Source of the DNA: a virus
Lineage: Duplodnaviria > Heunggongvirae > Uroviricota > Caudoviricetes
IMG/VR virus record: IMGVR_UViG_2541047874_000002
Location: 1-10,867 of that record
Direction: 5' to 3' (one strand)
DNA: 10,867 bases
The notes below the pieces were generated by a model. It saw only the letters and a program-made list of their open reading frames with translations. It ran no database searches and was not told where the DNA came from. The stretch's first letter is position 1. Every line of letters begins with the position of its first letter. A program made the position numbers and the translations under genes. This document shows, piece after piece, positions 65-10,867 of this stretch.

Positions 65-84
65 TGTGCGACCACGGTCGCACA
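65..84. repeat. Copy 1 of dispersed near-palindrome TGTGCGACCACGGTCGCACA, about 20 nt downstream of the stop of the 103..414 minus-strand gene
   Basis: Read directly: 20-mer at 65-84; centre CCACGG on the plus strand. Same motif at 3105-3124, 7945-7963 and 10390-10407. Confidence 0.9.
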
Positions 85-3104: not shown

Positions 3105-3124
3105 TGTGCGACCGTGGTCGCACA
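3105..3124. repeat. Copy 2 of dispersed near-palindrome (TGTGCGACCGTGGTCGCACA), just downstream of the 3129..3356 gene stop and about 20 bp upstream of the candidate -35
   Basis: Read directly; opposite centre orientation to copy 1 (CCGTGG on plus); followed by AGTTTTT on the plus strand. Confidence 0.9.
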
Positions 3125-3756: not shown

Positions 3757-4068
3757 ATGTTTAACGTGATAACCCACCCTGCAGCACTGGATGAACTGCT
3801 TGAACTACCAGATGATTTGCGAGGTCGCATGACCAGATTAATTGAGCGACTGGAGAAGGAAGGCAACAAACTGAAGATGCCCCATAGCCGTGTAATAGGT
3901 GGAGGGCTTTTTGAACTACGAGTAGGGGATAAAAACATCGCAAGAACGCTGTACGCCTACGCGACTGGTAACGAAATTTATCTATTGCATGCATTTGTAA
4001 AAAAGACACAGAAAACACCGGTGAAGGCTATCGAAATCGCCAGAACTCGCCTGAAGGAGATGAACTGA
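3757..4068 (+). CDS. higB: Type II toxin, RelE/ParE superfamily, HigB / Gp49-like
   Basis: 103 aa; C-terminal LYAYATGNEIYLLHAFVKKTQKTP motif characteristic of HigB/Gp49-like toxins (recalled); GGAGG Shine-Dalgarno; toxin-first order; stop overlaps the antitoxin start (TGATG). Confidence 0.8.
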   Translation: MFNVITHPAALDELLELPDDLRGRMTRLIERLEKEGNKLKMPHSRVIGGGLFELRVGDKNIARTLYAYATGNEIYLLHAFVKKTQKTPVKAIEIARTRLKEMN

Positions 4069-4355
4069 TGAAAGCAAAAGGCATCCCGTTTAACGAAGTA
4101 AAGGAAAAACTACTCAACACTCCAGAAGCTATCAAAGGATATGAAGAGGCCGATAAAGAACTGGAGATGGTCGAAATGTTATACGAAATGAGGGAAAGAG
4201 CAGGTTTAACGAAGTCAGCTCTGGCAGAACGAATGGGATTGCGCCCGTCCGCCATCAGCCGCCTGGAAAGCAATCCTTTAGGGGCAAGTATGAAAACTTT
4301 ATCAAAATATGCCCAGGCATGTGGCGCAACAATTAATATTAATGCCGTCTATTGA
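4068..4355 (+). CDS. higA: Type II antitoxin, HTH XRE-family (HigA-like)
   Basis: 95 aa with helix-turn-helix segment (LTKSALAERMGLRPSAISRLE); translationally coupled to the upstream toxin. Confidence 0.8.
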   Translation: MKAKGIPFNEVKEKLLNTPEAIKGYEEADKELEMVEMLYEMRERAGLTKSALAERMGLRPSAISRLESNPLGASMKTLSKYAQACGATININAVY

Positions 4356-4398: not shown

Positions 4399-4617
4399 TC
4401 AATGATGTAAACACTCAACAGCAATCGCTTGTTGGCAATTCTGAGCAATCTCCCGCGACATACTAACAAGCCGTGAAATCTCGCCAAGATGCAAGCTAGC
4501 TTCGGGAGAAGCCAGAGCAACGTTAACCAGATCCAAAACGGCGTCGATGTCTTTTAGGTTTGATTCGAGTTCTTCAAGAGTTGATACAGATGCTTCAGTC
4601 ATTGAATCTAATACCAT
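4399..4617 (-). CDS. Small acidic helical protein (72 aa), putatively LexA/SOS-regulated; candidate antirepressor
   Basis: ORF begins 25 nt downstream of a near-consensus LexA box; no strong Shine-Dalgarno (alternative ATG at 4602); function inferred from context only. Confidence 0.5.
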   Translation of the reverse strand: MVLDSMTEASVSTLEELESNLKDIDAVLDLVNVALASPEASLHLGEISRLVSMSREIAQNCQQAIAVECLHH

Positions 4618-4639: not shown

Positions 4640-4659
4640 TACTGTATAAAATTACAGGG
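4640..4659. promoter_or_regulatory. LexA (SOS) box TACTGTATAAAATTACAGGG
   Basis: Matches the E. coli LexA consensus TACTGT-(AT)4-ACAGTA at 16 of 20 positions with the CTGT-N8-ACAG core intact; sits immediately upstream of the 4399..4617 gene in an AT-rich intergenic region. Confidence 0.6.
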
Positions 4660-4859
4660 TAAAACTCAAATTTTATAGCCAACTTTCAATGGATTAACTG
4701 GGTTAATAGTTTTGTAGTCAGATATTTATGTTCTCTTCCTACGCCTCACTCAACCACCTACAGAAGCCCATCATCACCATAAGAAAAGCTCTTTTCGCTT
4801 CGTTTGCGTATCATTTCAAAAAGCAATGCCTTTTTATCCATTTATCCCTCCGTGACCAG

Positions 4860-5186
4860 TCACGCTTTGAGCGCAAGTTTCAGCCTCGTGGTTGTAAGGT
4901 GGCATGAGCCTTCACCATCAAAAATGCATTCTGAAACAGGCATTTTTTGACCACATCGCGGACAAGCAGCAGATAGCTGCTTCTGCAACTCCTTATAGTT
5001 TTTCCTGATCAGAAGGCCGATAACTTCATTCTCTGAATATGGGACTCGCCCCGGTCTACGCAATACACAAATTTCCCCCAACATACGTAACTCGTCAGGT
5101 TCCAGAATCCAGTCCCGTCTTGATGTGCCTTCCTTCTTCAACCGTTCCCTGCGTCTCCTTTGCCGTTCTGCCGGTGTCAGCGCCAT
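4860..5186 (-). CDS. Hypothetical basic protein (108 aa) with C-terminal Cys4 zinc-ribbon-like motif
   Basis: AGGAGG Shine-Dalgarno 4 nt upstream of ATG 5186; Arg-rich N-terminus (ERQRRRRERLKKEG); C-terminal CPRCG...C...C. Possible regulator; family not recognised. Confidence 0.55.
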   Translation of the reverse strand: MALTPAERQRRRRERLKKEGTSRRDWILEPDELRMLGEICVLRRPGRVPYSENEVIGLLIRKNYKELQKQLSAACPRCGQKMPVSECIFDGEGSCHLTTTRLKLALKA

Positions 5187-7939: not shown

Positions 7940-8240
7940 TTTCTTGTGCGACCACGGTCGCACCCTCTCTGATTTCCAAGTAACGCTTAATCCAAAGATT
8001 TTCTATATGCTTATTACCTGGCTGATTTGATAAATACCAATCGGCAATTACAGACTGCTTATTACTATCTGGTCGTGTCCTGTAACCACAAGTTGGACAC
8101 CAAATAACATATTCATTTCTTACCCCCGAATACCTTAATTCTGGCTTCGACGGTTTCCTGAACATAACTTGTTTACAAAGGCAGAATGGCACTTCCTGCC
8201 CGATGGCGTTTGATGATTTCACTGCGCTTCTCCGCCGCAT
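7920..8240 (-). CDS. Small zinc-ribbon protein, possibly Lar-family restriction-alleviation-like
   Basis: CxC...CPTCG cysteine pairs (FCLC, CPTCG) about 22 aa apart; ATG at 8240 overlaps the upstream gene by 68 nt, so the start is uncertain (alternative ATG 8165 would lose the first Cys pair). Confidence 0.4.
   Translation of the reverse strand: MRRRSAVKSSNAIGQEVPFCLCKQVMFRKPSKPELRYSGVRNEYVIWCPTCGYRTRPDSNKQSVIADWYLSNQPGNKHIENLWIKRYLEIREGATVVAQENENNAI
7945..7963. repeat. Copy 3 of dispersed near-palindrome (TGTGCGACCACGGTCGCAC), overlapping the 3' end of the Lar-like ORF and 6 nt upstream of the 7939 ATG
   Basis: Read directly; on the coding (minus) strand it is read in frame as A-T-V-V-A-Q. 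Confidence 0.9.
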
Positions 8241-8883: not shown

Positions 8884-9094
8884 GCTTACGACTCTCCTTA
8901 ATCGACTGCTTTACCCGCCGAGTTGTAAAGTCACTCTTCAGCTTATAAGCAGTACGAACTTCAATATCGCTTTGCCGCAATGAAGGAATCTCTCCAGCGG
9001 TTAACCATTGGTAAACAGCTCCGGGTGTTACACCTACCCCTGCCGCTGCTTTTTCTACACTGCCAAAATGGCGAATAAGTTCTTCTGGTTTCAT
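8873..9094 (-). CDS. cro: Cro-like repressor (P22 Cro-type HTH)
   Basis: MKPEELIRHFGSVEKAAAGVGVTPGAVYQW resembles recalled P22 Cro (DVIDHFGTQRAVAKALGISDAAVSQW); divergent from the CI-like gene across an operator-rich region. No obvious Shine-Dalgarno. Confidence 0.7.
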   Translation of the reverse strand: MKPEELIRHFGSVEKAAAGVGVTPGAVYQWLTAGEIPSLRQSDIEVRTAYKLKSDFTTRRVKQSIKESRKRGA

Positions 9095-9185
9095 GTTGTT
9101 ATTATAAACAATAAACAACAATTAAAGCCAGCTATAATAAATAAATTTTATAGCCAGCTATAAGAAGATCATTTATGATTACAGT
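9095..9185. promoter_or_regulatory. Immunity-region divergent promoter/operator segment
   Basis: Direct repeat of GCCAGCTATAA (9127-9137, 9153-9163); 16-bp near-palindrome TTATAGCCAGCTATAA (9148-9163) and half-related TTAAAGCCAGCTATAA (9122-9137); TTGTT...AACAA repeats at 9096-9120. The CI-like ATG has no Shine-Dalgarno, so a leaderless mRNA is possible. Confidence 0.55.
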
Positions 9186-9782
9186 ATGAAAACACGAGGC
9201 GAACGACTGAAAGCACGCCGTTTAGAGATGAAGCTGACGTTGCGAGAAGTTGCTGAGGCTGTCGATATCTCTATAGCAGGCGTCCAAAACTTAGAACGTG
9301 GCGACGTAATGCCGTCACTGGAGATAGGTATTGCCCTGGCTAAGTGCTTACGCAAGCCAGTGCATTGGGTGCTATATGGGACAGAATATGACCCTGATCG
9401 CATTCCTGTTATTGGCACAACTGAAAGTGGGCCGGATGAAGAGTGGAAGCCGGGACAGGTTCCAAATACTGAGCGATTCCTGCCATTCATCAGCCAGCGC
9501 AATACTGTGTATGCGTTAACTATCAGCAATCTTACGCAGGGAAACTATCAGCCAGGCGATTTTCTCCTGGTCGATTCTGCGCTGGAACTGGTCCCCGGCG
9601 AGGATGTTCTGGTTCGTGATACTGCAGGAAATATCACTATCCAGCGCCTGGCCCGTTTTGATGATGAAAATTACTATCTGGATGGAACAAACTCACAACG
9701 CGCCATCTTCAGGAAAAGCGATCTTGAATTTGTTCACCAAATAGTCGGAACGATCAAATCATTCATGGTTGAGGGTAGATGA
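9186..9782 (+). CDS. CI-like prophage repressor: N-terminal XRE HTH plus LexA/S24-like C-terminal domain with apparently degenerate catalytic Lys
   Basis: 198 aa; HTH (LTLREVAEAVDISIAGVQNLERG); C-terminal PGDFLLVD...NITIQRL aligns by eye with LexA GDLLAV...VTVKRL but has Gln where the catalytic Lys would be. Confidence 0.75.
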   Translation: MKTRGERLKARRLEMKLTLREVAEAVDISIAGVQNLERGDVMPSLEIGIALAKCLRKPVHWVLYGTEYDPDRIPVIGTTESGPDEEWKPGQVPNTERFLPFISQRNTVYALTISNLTQGNYQPGDFLLVDSALELVPGEDVLVRDTAGNITIQRLARFDDENYYLDGTNSQRAIFRKSDLEFVHQIVGTIKSFMVEGR

Positions 9783-9884
9783 CTTAATACGGGGTTTATT
9801 GTTTGCTGTAAATCTGGTTTAATGCAGGGCATATGTTCTGTGGGTTGACTCAGGTTACAGCAGCAGAAAAAAGACGAAAAAAAA

Positions 9885-9912
9885 CCCGAGTCGGCAAACT
9901 CGGGTCCTTTTC
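9885..9912 (+). terminator. Rho-independent terminator after the CI-like gene
   Basis: CCCGAG-TCGGCAAA-CTCGGG hairpin followed by TCCTTTTC and preceded by an A-tract (possibly bidirectional). Confidence 0.5.
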
Positions 9913-10026
9913 AGGAAGCAGCCACAACAACGCGACAGATTCCGTCAATTCAAGATGCGTTTATTGTGGCTGCTCCTGCGGATTTTTTCAACCCGAAAAA
10001 ACATAATTCGCATGGAATGGCTAAAA

Positions 10027-10866
10027 AATGACATTAAACGATTTCTATGCGGATCGCTTTGGCAGCGATCCGTTCTCGCTAATTGAAGCAGCACGGGATG
10101 AACTAACCGAGCTGGCACAGATGGCTGGTATCAACTGGCCTGCCTGTTCCGACAACATCCAACTCAACCCTCGCGGGGGGGTTGAGCGTTACTCTTCATA
10201 CAATAAAACATCTCCAGAAGCTCTCGAAAAGAGCCTGAAAGGACGCGTAGAAATTTACTCCAGGCTGGAACACAGCAAAGGGATTGATTACCCGTTCATT
10301 AACTTCGTCCATAAAGGCAGCGATGCTGGCTCATGGAGCGGTTTCTCCTTCCTGTTTTCTGAATATCGCCGTGAGCAACAACGGAATAATGCGACCGTGG
10401 TCGCACAACCGGAAGAAGAACGGGAAAGAATAGAACGTCAGGCCGAAGCACGTCGTCGCCGTGAAGAACAAAAACGAATTAATGACCTGAAAAACAACCA
10501 AATGGACCATGAACGTTTGCTGGGATGGCTGGCATTCCACAGCGCGTGGGAACATGCTCAGGCTGAAGACGGCTCATGGCCATATGCGATTAAAAAAGGT
10601 ATTCGTGACGTTTTTAGTTCATGTGATGTGCGTCGCGTGACCAGTCACGACAGTGCGAAATGGAGCCGGGGGCCAACCACATATATGGCTATCCCTCTGG
10701 CTCACCTGGACGGTCGTTATGATGGTCGTATTGTGGGTTGGCAGCGAATCGACAAACAAGGTGGGAAATACCAGACCAGCGCAGTAACCAGCGGCGATTT
10801 CGTCGGTGCCTGCTTTGTTATCGGTGAGCTGAAAGGGGCGCAAAACATCGCTGTTACAGAAGGTTT
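10027..10866 (+). CDS. Primase-like replication protein, N-terminal part (truncated by window end)
   Basis: Frame open from ATG 10027 to the window end (280 codons, verified codon by codon); charged linker EEERERIERQAEARRRREEQKR; ends in IAVTEGF, resembling the start of a TOPRIM acidic motif. Not in the ORF track because it has no stop. Confidence 0.5.
10390..10407. repeat. Copy 4 of dispersed near-palindrome (TGCGACCGTGGTCGCACA) inside the primase-like coding sequence
   Basis: Read directly; encodes A-T-V-V-A-Q in the plus frame, just before the charged linker. Confidence 0.9.
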
Positions 10867-10867
10867 T

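Follow-up and report, generated by a model that had tools for sequence, protein, structure and literature searches.

The repA leader and first 280 codons of an N15-like phage-plasmid, with a predicted in-gene partition palindrome and a second conserved dyad

Genes and control region at the locus

The window analysed here is a 10,867-nt stretch of viral DNA, of which we describe the segment from 9783 to its end. Position 9783 is the first base past the stop codon of cB, so the interval includes a 245-nt leader. The cB gene (9186–9782, plus strand) is the upstream neighbour of repA and encodes a CI-like prophage repressor, with a Pfam HTH_3 match (E 3e-11) and a weak Peptidase_S24 match; it aligns with N15 gene 38 and phiKO2 gp36. 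The 5′ part of repA, assigned from its translation and its homology to N15 gp37, begins at an ATG at 10028 and comprises codons 1–280 (10028–10867, plus strand, 840 nt), the reading frame being open at the window end. A preliminary description of this DNA had reported an ORF of at least 280 aa, co-oriented with a CI-like gene and following it after a terminator, and this is borne out by the positions of cB, of the leader hairpin at 9877–9911 and of the repA start codon.

Escherichia phage YDC107_1 (Ravinvirus) is identical to the window at every nucleotide across 9000–10867, and in the same comparison N15 and phiKO2 are each 78% identical. In the relative identical to the window the complete repA gene has 1327 codons, so that the window covers 21% of it. 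The first 280 amino acids of RepA are 83% identical to residues 1–281 of N15 RepA gp37 (280/281 aa), and the full-length relative is colinear with gp37 at 76% identity (1323 aa). Synteny, like sequence identity, can be read directly: the order Q-cro-cB-repA, followed by an antirepressor operon and a protelomerase gene, is common to the closest relative, N15 and phiKO2, and in the closest relative ~2.6 kb separate the repA stop from the protelomerase gene that follows. The replicase gp35 of the Klebsiella phage phiKO2 and RepA of the Yersinia phage PY54 have the same architecture and the same place beside the repressor gene. Compared with N15, the genes upstream are mosaic, and megablast aligns just 27% of the 10.9-kb window to that phage. 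The sopAB genes, a telomere and telN were not found within the 10,867-nt window; a sopAB operon is present in N15. We found no evidence contradicting the identification of an N15-type repA, and we assign 9783–10867, with a probability of about 0.95, to an N15-like (Ravinvirus) linear plasmid-prophage, as its repA regulatory leader with the initial 280 codons of that gene. The gene, its place beside the repressor gene and the in-gene centromere described below are textbook features of the N15 family, so the finding mainly labels the window as an N15-like phage-plasmid.

A putative repA promoter, PL, and two OL-like CB operators were placed at 9795–9834 (plus strand) by aligning the N15 immB annotation (U45242.1) with the window. 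The putative −35 and −10 hexamers are TTTATT (9795–9800) and TTTAAT (9818–9823), and the OL-like operators that overlap them are TTATTGTTTGCTGTAA at 9796–9811 and TTAATGCAGGGCATAT at 9819–9834. Both sites retain the TA-N10-TA operator motif (as in PMC4997575), but their sequences, like some segments of the CB recognition region, have diverged from the N15 counterparts. In N15 and phiKO2 two OL operators overlap the repA promoter, and their occupation by CB reduces copy number (PMC4488713, PMC4997575); in phiKO2 the binding of CB to OL governs copy number (PMC4997575). By homology with these two phages, repA would be transcribed from PL, just 3′ of cB. Since the two OL operators overlap PL, we propose that CB, the repressor that maintains lysogeny, would also set plasmid copy number, the binding of CB at OL being taken over from the published work on N15, phiKO2 and PY54.

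The leader further contains a hairpin, AAAAAAAACCCGAGTCGGCAAACTCGGGTCCTTTT (9877–9911), with a 16-pair stem, which in N15 is annotated as terminating both the repA leader transcript and an antisense RNA, and in phiKO2 as "putative bidirectional"; its sequence is invariant in both phages. A terminator scan recognizes it on the minus strand (16 pairs and a T run), and its plus-strand T tail is weak. Downstream of it, a Pinc-like promoter on the minus strand (TTGAAA, 17 nt, CACAAT; 9963–9991) is the sole sigma-70-like match returned by a promoter scan of 9700–10867. It lies inside a 46-nt block (9956–10001) shared without change by the window, N15 and phiKO2, and the homologous N15 site is annotated as "Pinc; promoter of putative antisense RNA". 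The predicted Pinc RNA would be ~85 nt long, antisense to the repA leader, and would run from about 9956 down to 9870; an Rfam search of 9000–10867 gave just sub-threshold chance matches on the terminator hairpin, and no Rfam family exists for the Pinc antisense RNA. The hairpin is thus predicted to end the minus-strand antisense RNA and probably attenuates the plus-strand transcript from PL, and leader terminator and Pinc countertranscript together would probably form a second layer of control. Alignment and the promoter and terminator scans agree that the layout of cB, OL/PL, leader terminator, antisense promoter and repA is the published arrangement of N15 and phiKO2. The points on antisense control, like those on the N15 origin below, draw on secondary citations and GenBank annotation.

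The in-gene partition palindrome

The predicted SopB/ParB binding palindrome TGCGACCGTGGTCGCA occupies repA codons 121–126 (10390–10405) and was recognized as an IR1-type centromere site by its match to the N15 IR1 oligonucleotide. That oligonucleotide (PMC7205306, Table 4) matches the reverse complement of the repA site and its flanks, the palindrome falls on the same codons as N15 IR1 in a codon alignment, and N15 IR1 is itself located inside repA (PMC2847241); phiKO2 likewise carries an annotated in-gene partition site. The 14-bp core, GCGACC(GT/AC)GGTCGC, is present in exactly four copies in the window (eight strand matches against 0.04 expected), and the core pattern GCGACC-NN-GGTCGC is identical to that of N15 IR1–IR4. 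The copy in repA (10391–10404, codons 122–126) is the fourth. Copy 3 (7948–7961), downstream of Q, is the homologue of N15 IR2, as indicated by the phiKO2 partition-site annotation and the IR2 oligonucleotide (PMC7205306). Copy 2 (3108–3121), beside the late promoter and upstream of the methylase gene, corresponds to IR3 by the phiKO2 annotation and its syntenic position, and copy 1 (68–81) is probably the equivalent of IR4, given its core match and a fourth N15 site at 45563.

Conservation at the IR1 site exceeds what coding would need: synonymous-site identity there is 0.92, against a repA mean of 0.55 (sd 0.11). The clade of PY54, which is ~47% identical over the N-terminal region, has the F-type centromere GGGACCACGGTCCC at the IR1 position, with both arms altered symmetrically, and every copy within a PY54-clade locus is GGGACCNNGGTCCC, that is, the switch is concerted. 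The sopC centromere of plasmid F has the same 14-bp core design, in which a 2-bp centre of variable sequence separates two inverted arms of 6 bp, with the arm GGGACC in F and GCGACC in this phage; in contrast to the ten copies of F, which form one tandem array (PMC7205306), the sites here are scattered and one of them lies in coding sequence. N15 likewise has four dispersed copies.

On these comparisons we read the palindrome at 10391–10404 as the predicted homologue of the N15 IR1 SopB centromere site and not as part of an origin, contrary to one suggestion of the preliminary description, that it could be origin-related. By analogy with published work on N15, phiKO2 and PY54, the phage SopB partition protein would bind all four dispersed sites, and the copy in repA would serve plasmid segregation from a tolerant inter-domain linker. 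The same description had offered a domain boundary as an alternative meaning of the site. That suggestion stands in part: in a structural model the palindrome encodes a low-confidence linker that joins an N-terminal domain to a long helix, which is weak support given the poor quality of that model (see below).

A second conserved palindrome and the position of the origin

Since the palindrome in repA is a known partition site, the locus is ordinary but for a second conserved 14-bp palindrome. This dyad, CGTGACCAGTCACG, lies at 10636–10649 (codons 203–208), and both in-gene palindromes are thus where the preliminary description had placed them. Its other copy in the window (4851–4864) is at the stop of a gp46-like ORF, just upstream of the gp47-like start; 0.03 matches would be expected by chance. 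The syntenic N15 copy, at 39269, overlaps the stop of gene 46 and lies 13 nt upstream of the ATG of gene 47. The repA copy, exact in N15 and phiKO2 and, like IR1, on the same codons in N15 repA, is unchanged in 24/24 N15-clade loci, at +609/+612 of the gene. It sits in an 18-nt run, CGCGTGACCAGTCACGAC (10634–10651), which is the longest invariant run of repA among 10 clade representatives, and its synonymous identity is 0.90 (against the same mean and sd as above). In the PY54 clade this dyad is absent. A simple synonymous-constraint scan of repA picks up the in-gene centromere already known, together with a plausible position for the origin, discussed below, and the same scan flags this further invariant palindrome.

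One explanation, which we consider possible although the odds are somewhat against it, is that CGTGACCAGTCACG is an operator, or a second-class partition or silencing site, for an N15-clade factor, with three copies that couple repA with two antirepressor loci. The whole N15 genome has exactly three copies (0.15 expected), and N15, phiKO2 and YDC107_1 hold them at the same three syntenic positions, the one in repA lying within the invariant run. As read from the sequence, the immA copy precedes the leader of the antirepressor operon and is flanked by a −35-like hexamer and a −10-like one (TAAAAT); the third copy is followed, ~195 bp further on, by a LexA box and an antC-like ORF. The PY54 clade has a near-centromere sequence, GGGACCGTGGTCAC, at the position of the repA copy, and a full site downstream of repA. 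Against this explanation, the half-sites differ from those of the SopB inverted repeats despite equal spacing geometry, and a role at the RNA level, as a 14-nt self- or cross-complementary element, is an alternative. The LexA and CB operator consensus sequences did not match the dyad. More tentatively still, dyad 2 may be an undescribed cis-element common to all N15/phiKO2-clade phages, either the site of a dimeric protein or a diverged second-class ParB-type site, whose fixed copies in repA, in the antA/immA operon promoter region and beside the SOS-controlled antC might tie replication to the choice between lysis and lysogeny. No paper containing the string came up in a full-text search; the primary N15 and phiKO2 genome papers were outside that search, so the dyad may already be described. 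Should it prove to be the operator of a regulatory protein, replication and the antirepressor loci of telomere phages would be joined by an additional regulatory connection.

A different proposal, that the two in-gene dyads (10380–10660) mark the replication origin or RepA-binding iterons, is in keeping with an N15-type origin inside repA and with the surplus synonymous conservation of both. It is nonetheless very unlikely: the first dyad corresponds to the published SopB centromere site IR1 and recurs at three non-origin sites, dyad 2 is also found at two places outside repA, and 10380–10660 has no AT-rich dip (GC 0.48–0.52). The strongest synonymous constraint of repA lies elsewhere, at codons 1218–1242, where the relative has an inverted repeat of 53 bp that is AT-rich at its centre, and GATC sites (locus L001, 13692–13744, beyond the window; a computational pointer). 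The best origin candidate is accordingly placed by sequence ~3.66 kb downstream of the repA ATG, outside the window. This constraint peak agrees with the position of the N15 and PY54 origins, which we take to map to the 3′ part of repA. In N15, replication starts within repA (PMC2847241), and by analogy with the published N15, phiKO2 and PY54 systems RepA would start bidirectional replication at an origin inside its own gene.

Still less probable is conservation of the dyads merely through the peptides they encode (ATVVA and RVTSHD), with no function of the DNA itself. Both peptides are conserved inside the N15 clade, but among the 10 clade representatives just 15.8% of degenerate codons with an invariant amino acid are also codon-invariant, yet dyad 2, over six codons in a row, and the IR1 arms show no change; in the PY54 clade the IR1 peptide becomes GTTVP while the DNA remains a perfect palindrome of other specificity, and both dyad sequences recur in non-coding DNA. 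One other repA palindrome, the hairpin CTCAACCCTCGCGGGGGGGTTGAG at 10163–10186, was rejected as a chance structure: it lacks conservation, since synonymous changes in relatives disrupt its stem.

RepA architecture and affiliation

Domain content was read from a full-length relative, CP025712.1, a record identical to the window over 9000–10867. Toprim_3 (Pfam) was matched at residues 274–383, Herpes_ori_bp at 500–674 (E 4e-7) and NCBIfam CyRepA1 at 525–1034 (E 1.5e-75), the last two beyond the window. As the Toprim_3 envelope begins at residue 274, just seven TOPRIM residues, IAVTEGF (10847–10867, plus strand), fall inside the window; by the envelope and a motif alignment they include the catalytic Glu278 of the EGFATGAS motif. 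The ORF had been described as ending in a TOPRIM domain, which is correct in a narrow sense only, for these seven residues. Toprim_3 was matched in 6/7 family members (best E 2.6e-6); in the lineage of the window it scored 22.5 bits in the whole protein and 27.1 in the excised region, against a Pfam gathering cut-off of 27.2. The TOPRIM motifs EGFATGAS, DND and SDFNDL are invariant across clades in the motif alignment, so that the catalytic residues on which a primase assignment depends are in place, and an SF2-type helicase/origin-binding domain lies 3′ of the primase. With these matches the gene is, as first proposed, a replication gene of primase type. In RepA of N15 and PY54 a DnaG primase domain is joined to an SF2 helicase whose function has been demonstrated by experiment (PMC4889955), and by analogy the present RepA would be one large protein of ~1327 aa in which an N-terminal region is followed by a TOPRIM primase of DnaG type and an SF2-type helicase/origin-binding domain, its primase and helicase activities being carried over from the published N15, phiKO2 and PY54 work.

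The protein homologue search gave just fragments and one frameshifted product (P0004), and viral loci were used for the comparisons. An AlphaFold2 model of a homologue with 51% identity (P0007, 410 aa, 7-sequence alignment) had a mean pLDDT of 58 and was usable just at residues 1–123 and a long helix. Foldseek with this model found nothing in the PDB with E < 0.25, a T7 primase fragment (1nui) ranking second at E 0.45, and neither the first 500 aa nor a 7-sequence profile, searched against PDB sequences, produced a meaningful match. Compared with the CyRepA1 plasmid replication proteins of NCBIfam NF042913, it is the central helicase/initiator region of the relative that matches; that model covers residues 525–1034 alone, outside the window, and the N-terminal region and TOPRIM domain lie outside the model.

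The least credible of the alternatives, raised in the preliminary description, would assign the gene to the primase-type replicon of a P4-like satellite or integrative element: a TOPRIM-type primase with an EG(F/Y)AT motif is indeed seen in plasmid and P4-type primases, repA is co-oriented with the repressor gene and lambda O/P genes are absent, but the nearest relatives belong to Ravinvirus and have complete head, tail and lysis modules as well as a protelomerase gene, the helicase part matches Herpes_ori_bp and CyRepA1 and not the D5-type helicase models of P4 alpha (no Pfam match to a P4 alpha-like primase with a D5/SF3 helicase was found in the full-length relative), and no integrase is present in the window or in the 9-kb flanks of the relative. 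All E. coli copies, 22/22 among 5426 E. coli genomes, are on plasmids and none is chromosomal, which leaves the satellite or integrative reading unsupported. A lambda-type replication module, with O and P after cro and the origin in O, was likewise rejected; as had been noted, the layout is unlike that of lambda, with Q, a QD1-like ORF, an exonuclease gene and others following cro and replication on the cB side.

An N15-like repA thus remains the preferred identification, and it places the window in a type of element that is common on Klebsiella and E. coli plasmids, with 214 plasmid records carrying this repA type. The pJAZZ linear cloning vectors are based on N15. In RefSeq the E. coli copies carry the name CyRepA1.

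RepA identity and gene order

The interval 9783–10866 comprises the 5′ part of an N15-type repA gene, a known control region and a known in-gene centromere site. The system behind it is already known, and its sole novel remnant is a second 14-bp dyad (dyad 2) without an assigned role. As first described, an ORF of at least 280 aa follows the CI-like gene on the same strand after a hairpin (9877–9911); it begins with ATG at 10028 and its translation remains open for 280 codons, as far as the window's final base. The full ORF is 1327 aa long in Escherichia phage YDC107_1 (genus Ravinvirus; CP025712.1), which is 100% identical to window positions 9000–10867 at the nucleotide level. Identity over the same stretch is 97.5% for phage PhiR46_1 and ~78% for N15, phiKO2 and several Klebsiella and Enterobacter telomere phages, and the whole window matches YDC107_1 as a mosaic (87% coverage, 98% identity). 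The full-length YDC107_1 protein is colinear with N15 gp37 (RepA) over 1323 residues at 76% identity, and the 280 aa of the window share 83% identity with gp37 residues 1–281.

Domain scans of the full-length relative confirm a primase-type replication gene, with Toprim_3 at residues 274–383, Herpes_ori_bp at 500–674 and NCBIfam CyRepA1 at 525–1034 (E 1.5e-75). The facts of the first description all proved correct, with one qualification. The ORF had been described as ending in TOPRIM; it does reach the domain, which in the full-length protein begins at residue 274, but only its last seven residues (IAVTEGF) belong to it. Loss of TOPRIM catalytic residues was looked for in the full-length protein and not seen: the motifs EGFATGAS, DND and SDFNDL are unchanged between the N15 and PY54 clades, and six of seven diverse RepA family members match Toprim_3. 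A survey places the N15 and PY54 proteins among the SF2 helicases, notes a DnaG-type primase domain at their N terminus and describes their replicative-helicase function as confirmed by experiment (PMC4889955). A hairpin within repA, CTCAACCCTCGCGGGGGGGTTGAG (10-bp stem, 10163–10186), matched the terminator scan and was taken as chance, since relatives do not conserve it.

The surrounding genes follow the order of the N15 immB/replication region: Q, cro, cB and repA, followed by small genes, the antirepressor operon and the protelomerase gene. That repA runs in the same direction as the repressor gene is therefore no oddity but the arrangement that defines telomere phages. The 1085-nt interval has matches in 214 plasmid records, of which 176 are from Klebsiella and 28 from Escherichia. 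A search of 5426 complete E. coli genomes found it in 18, at 22 places, all 22 on plasmids and none chromosomal, and no integrase was found in the window or in 9 kb flanking it in the relative. The likeness to satellite or integrative elements proposed in the preliminary description is therefore unsupported. In CP025712.1, repA and the antirepressor genes appear a second time, inverted and in fragments, beyond the protelomerase region (duplicated stretches 28021–32004 and 41478–45458); this resembles an artefact of assembling a linear plasmid with hairpin ends.

The leader and copy-number control

Because position 9783 is the first base past the stop of the CI-like gene (9186–9782; Pfam HTH_3 and a weak S24 match), the interval includes a 245-nt leader. 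Leader features were transferred by aligning it to the annotated N15 immB record, and the functions assigned by this homology are putative. The alignment places the repA promoter PL at 9795–9800 (−35, TTTATT) and 9818–9823 (−10, TTTAAT), with OL2-like and OL1-like operator sites at 9796–9811 and 9819–9834, both of which retain TA-N10-TA and have otherwise diverged. The strong hairpin AAAAAAAACCCGAGTCGGCAAACTCGGGTCCTTTT at 9877–9911, a putative bidirectional terminator, is identical in N15 and phiKO2, as is a 46-nt block at 9956–10001. Inside this block lies a minus-strand promoter, TTGAAA-17-CACAAT (9991–9963), the only sigma-70-like match of the region in a promoter scan, annotated in N15 as Pinc, the promoter from which a putative antisense RNA against the repA leader would start. 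The repressor CB of N15 and phiKO2 binds two OL operators overlapping the repA promoter, which represses repA and reduces prophage copy number (PMC4488713, PMC4997575).

Synonymous conservation is raised (0.82–0.88) at repA codons 1–14. In this lineage an 8-bp inverted repeat with GATC sites, CGGATCGC / GCGATCCG, lies at 10049–10073, its stem imperfect in N15; it may be linked to translation initiation or Dam methylation.

A centromere site within repA and a candidate origin

Both dyads reported inside the coding sequence are present, at 10391–10404 and 10636–10649. The first belongs to a palindrome, GCGACC(GT/AC)GGTCGC, with exactly four copies in the window (68–81, 3108–3121, 7948–7961 and 10391–10404; ~0.04 chance matches expected), and the N15 genome likewise has exactly four GCGACC-NN-GGTCGC sites. 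These four N15 sites are IR1–IR4, the SopB sites used in experiments by Lane and colleagues, whose IR1 oligonucleotide TTCTTCTTCCGGCTGTGCGACCACGGTCGCACCATTCCGTTGG (Table 4, PMC7205306) is the reverse complement of window 10375–10420 but for three flanking bases. According to PMC2847241 the centromere site of N15 "lies within repA", and the phiKO2 record annotates a "putative plasmid partitioning site" at three syntenic positions, one inside the replicase gene. The palindrome in repA, suggested earlier to be origin-related, is thus a centromere and not an origin.

From 26 related viral loci, 23 distinct full-length repA genes were aligned by codon, and synonymous-site identity was computed in 6-codon windows over 12 representatives (mean 0.549, sd 0.107). 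The IR1 codons reach 0.92, the second-highest region anywhere in repA. Members of the PY54-like clade have GGG ACC ACG GTC CCA at these codons, an F-plasmid-type core GGGACCACGGTCCC changed symmetrically in both arms, the peptide changing from ATVVA to GTTVP, and the remaining palindrome copies of these loci are likewise F-type; therefore it is the DNA palindrome that is conserved, and the copies share one specificity. In two PY54-like loci the F-plasmid-type sopC core GGGACCNNGGTCCC occupies the IR1 position (L028 6373–6386, L029 6370–6383), with further full sites ~2.75 kb upstream and 4.7–5.1 kb downstream of the repA start. A domain boundary had also been proposed at the palindrome. It gains weak support from an AF2 prediction of low confidence for a homologue with 51% identity, in which the IR1 residues form a low-pLDDT linker (125–130) between a confident N-terminal domain (1–123) and a long helix (132–179).

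The GC profile showed no AT-rich dip at 10380–10660. The highest synonymous constraint in repA (0.99) falls at codons 1218–1242 of the full-length relative, on a 53-bp imperfect inverted repeat, GTGGATCGCGATTTGTCATT / AATGGTGAAACGCGATCCAC (YDC107_1 locus L001 13692–13744), ~2.8 kb past the window end, with an AT-rich centre TAAATATATATATG, one GATC site per arm and a local GC of 0.40. The repeat is a candidate in-gene origin; its position agrees with those of the N15 and PY54 origins, which lie in the 3′ portion of repA.

The second dyad and its surroundings

Dyad 2, CGTGACCAGTCACG, has two exact copies in the window, at 4851–4864 and 10636–10649 (0.03 expected), and as GTGACCAGTCAC exactly three in the 46-kb N15 genome (0.15 expected). 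One N15 copy is inside repA, one (L005 39269–39280) overlaps the stop codon of gene 46 and precedes the ATG of gene 47 by 13 nt, and one (L005 28550–28561) lies upstream of the leader of the antirepressor (immA) operon; phiKO2 and YDC107_1 are occupied at the same three positions. The repA copy, at +609/+612, is present in 24 of the 24 N15-clade loci covering that part of the gene, and in most of these loci the upstream and downstream copies are found as well. Of the degenerate codons whose amino acid is invariant among 10 N15-clade representatives, only 15.8% are invariant as codons too, yet CGCGTGACCAGTCACGAC (10634–10651) forms an 18-nt invariant run, the next-longest in repA being 14 nt; the run was computed as two adjacent 9-nt runs because an insertion in the PY54 clade adds gap columns.

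The PY54 clade is without dyad 2. The insertion it has there, GGGACCGTGGTCAC, differs at one base from the clade's own centromere core (L028 6629–6642, L029 6626–6639), and a full centromere site lies downstream of repA, which together hint that dyad 2 may be evolutionarily linked with partition sites. The dyad 2 half-sites showed no match to the SopB IR (in register), the CB operator or the LexA box, and the string was not found in a full-text literature search that did not extend to the primary genome papers, where it may already be described. Our best guess, held at about one chance in three, is an operator-like site for some dimeric protein.

Each of the two copies outside repA adjoins one of the two antirepressor loci. 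The immA-side copy (L005 28550–28561; L001 15003–15014) sits between −35-like and TAAAAT −10-like hexamers, and the copy at 4851–4864 lies ~195 bp upstream of an antC-like LexA box. This box, CTGTATAAAATTACAG (4642–4657), is perfect, is syntenic with one in N15 (L005 39564–39579), and lies immediately upstream of a minus-strand ORF of 72 aa (4399–4617), which is probably antC, the antirepressor under SOS control known from N15. A gp49-like ORF (Pfam Gp49/DUF891, HigB-type) followed by an HTH_3 ORF at 3757–4355 looks like a toxin-antitoxin pair (compare N15 genes 49/48). The gp47-like ORF (4758–4841), which starts right after the upstream dyad 2 copy, encodes 27 aa versus 73 aa in N15 and may be truncated in this phage.
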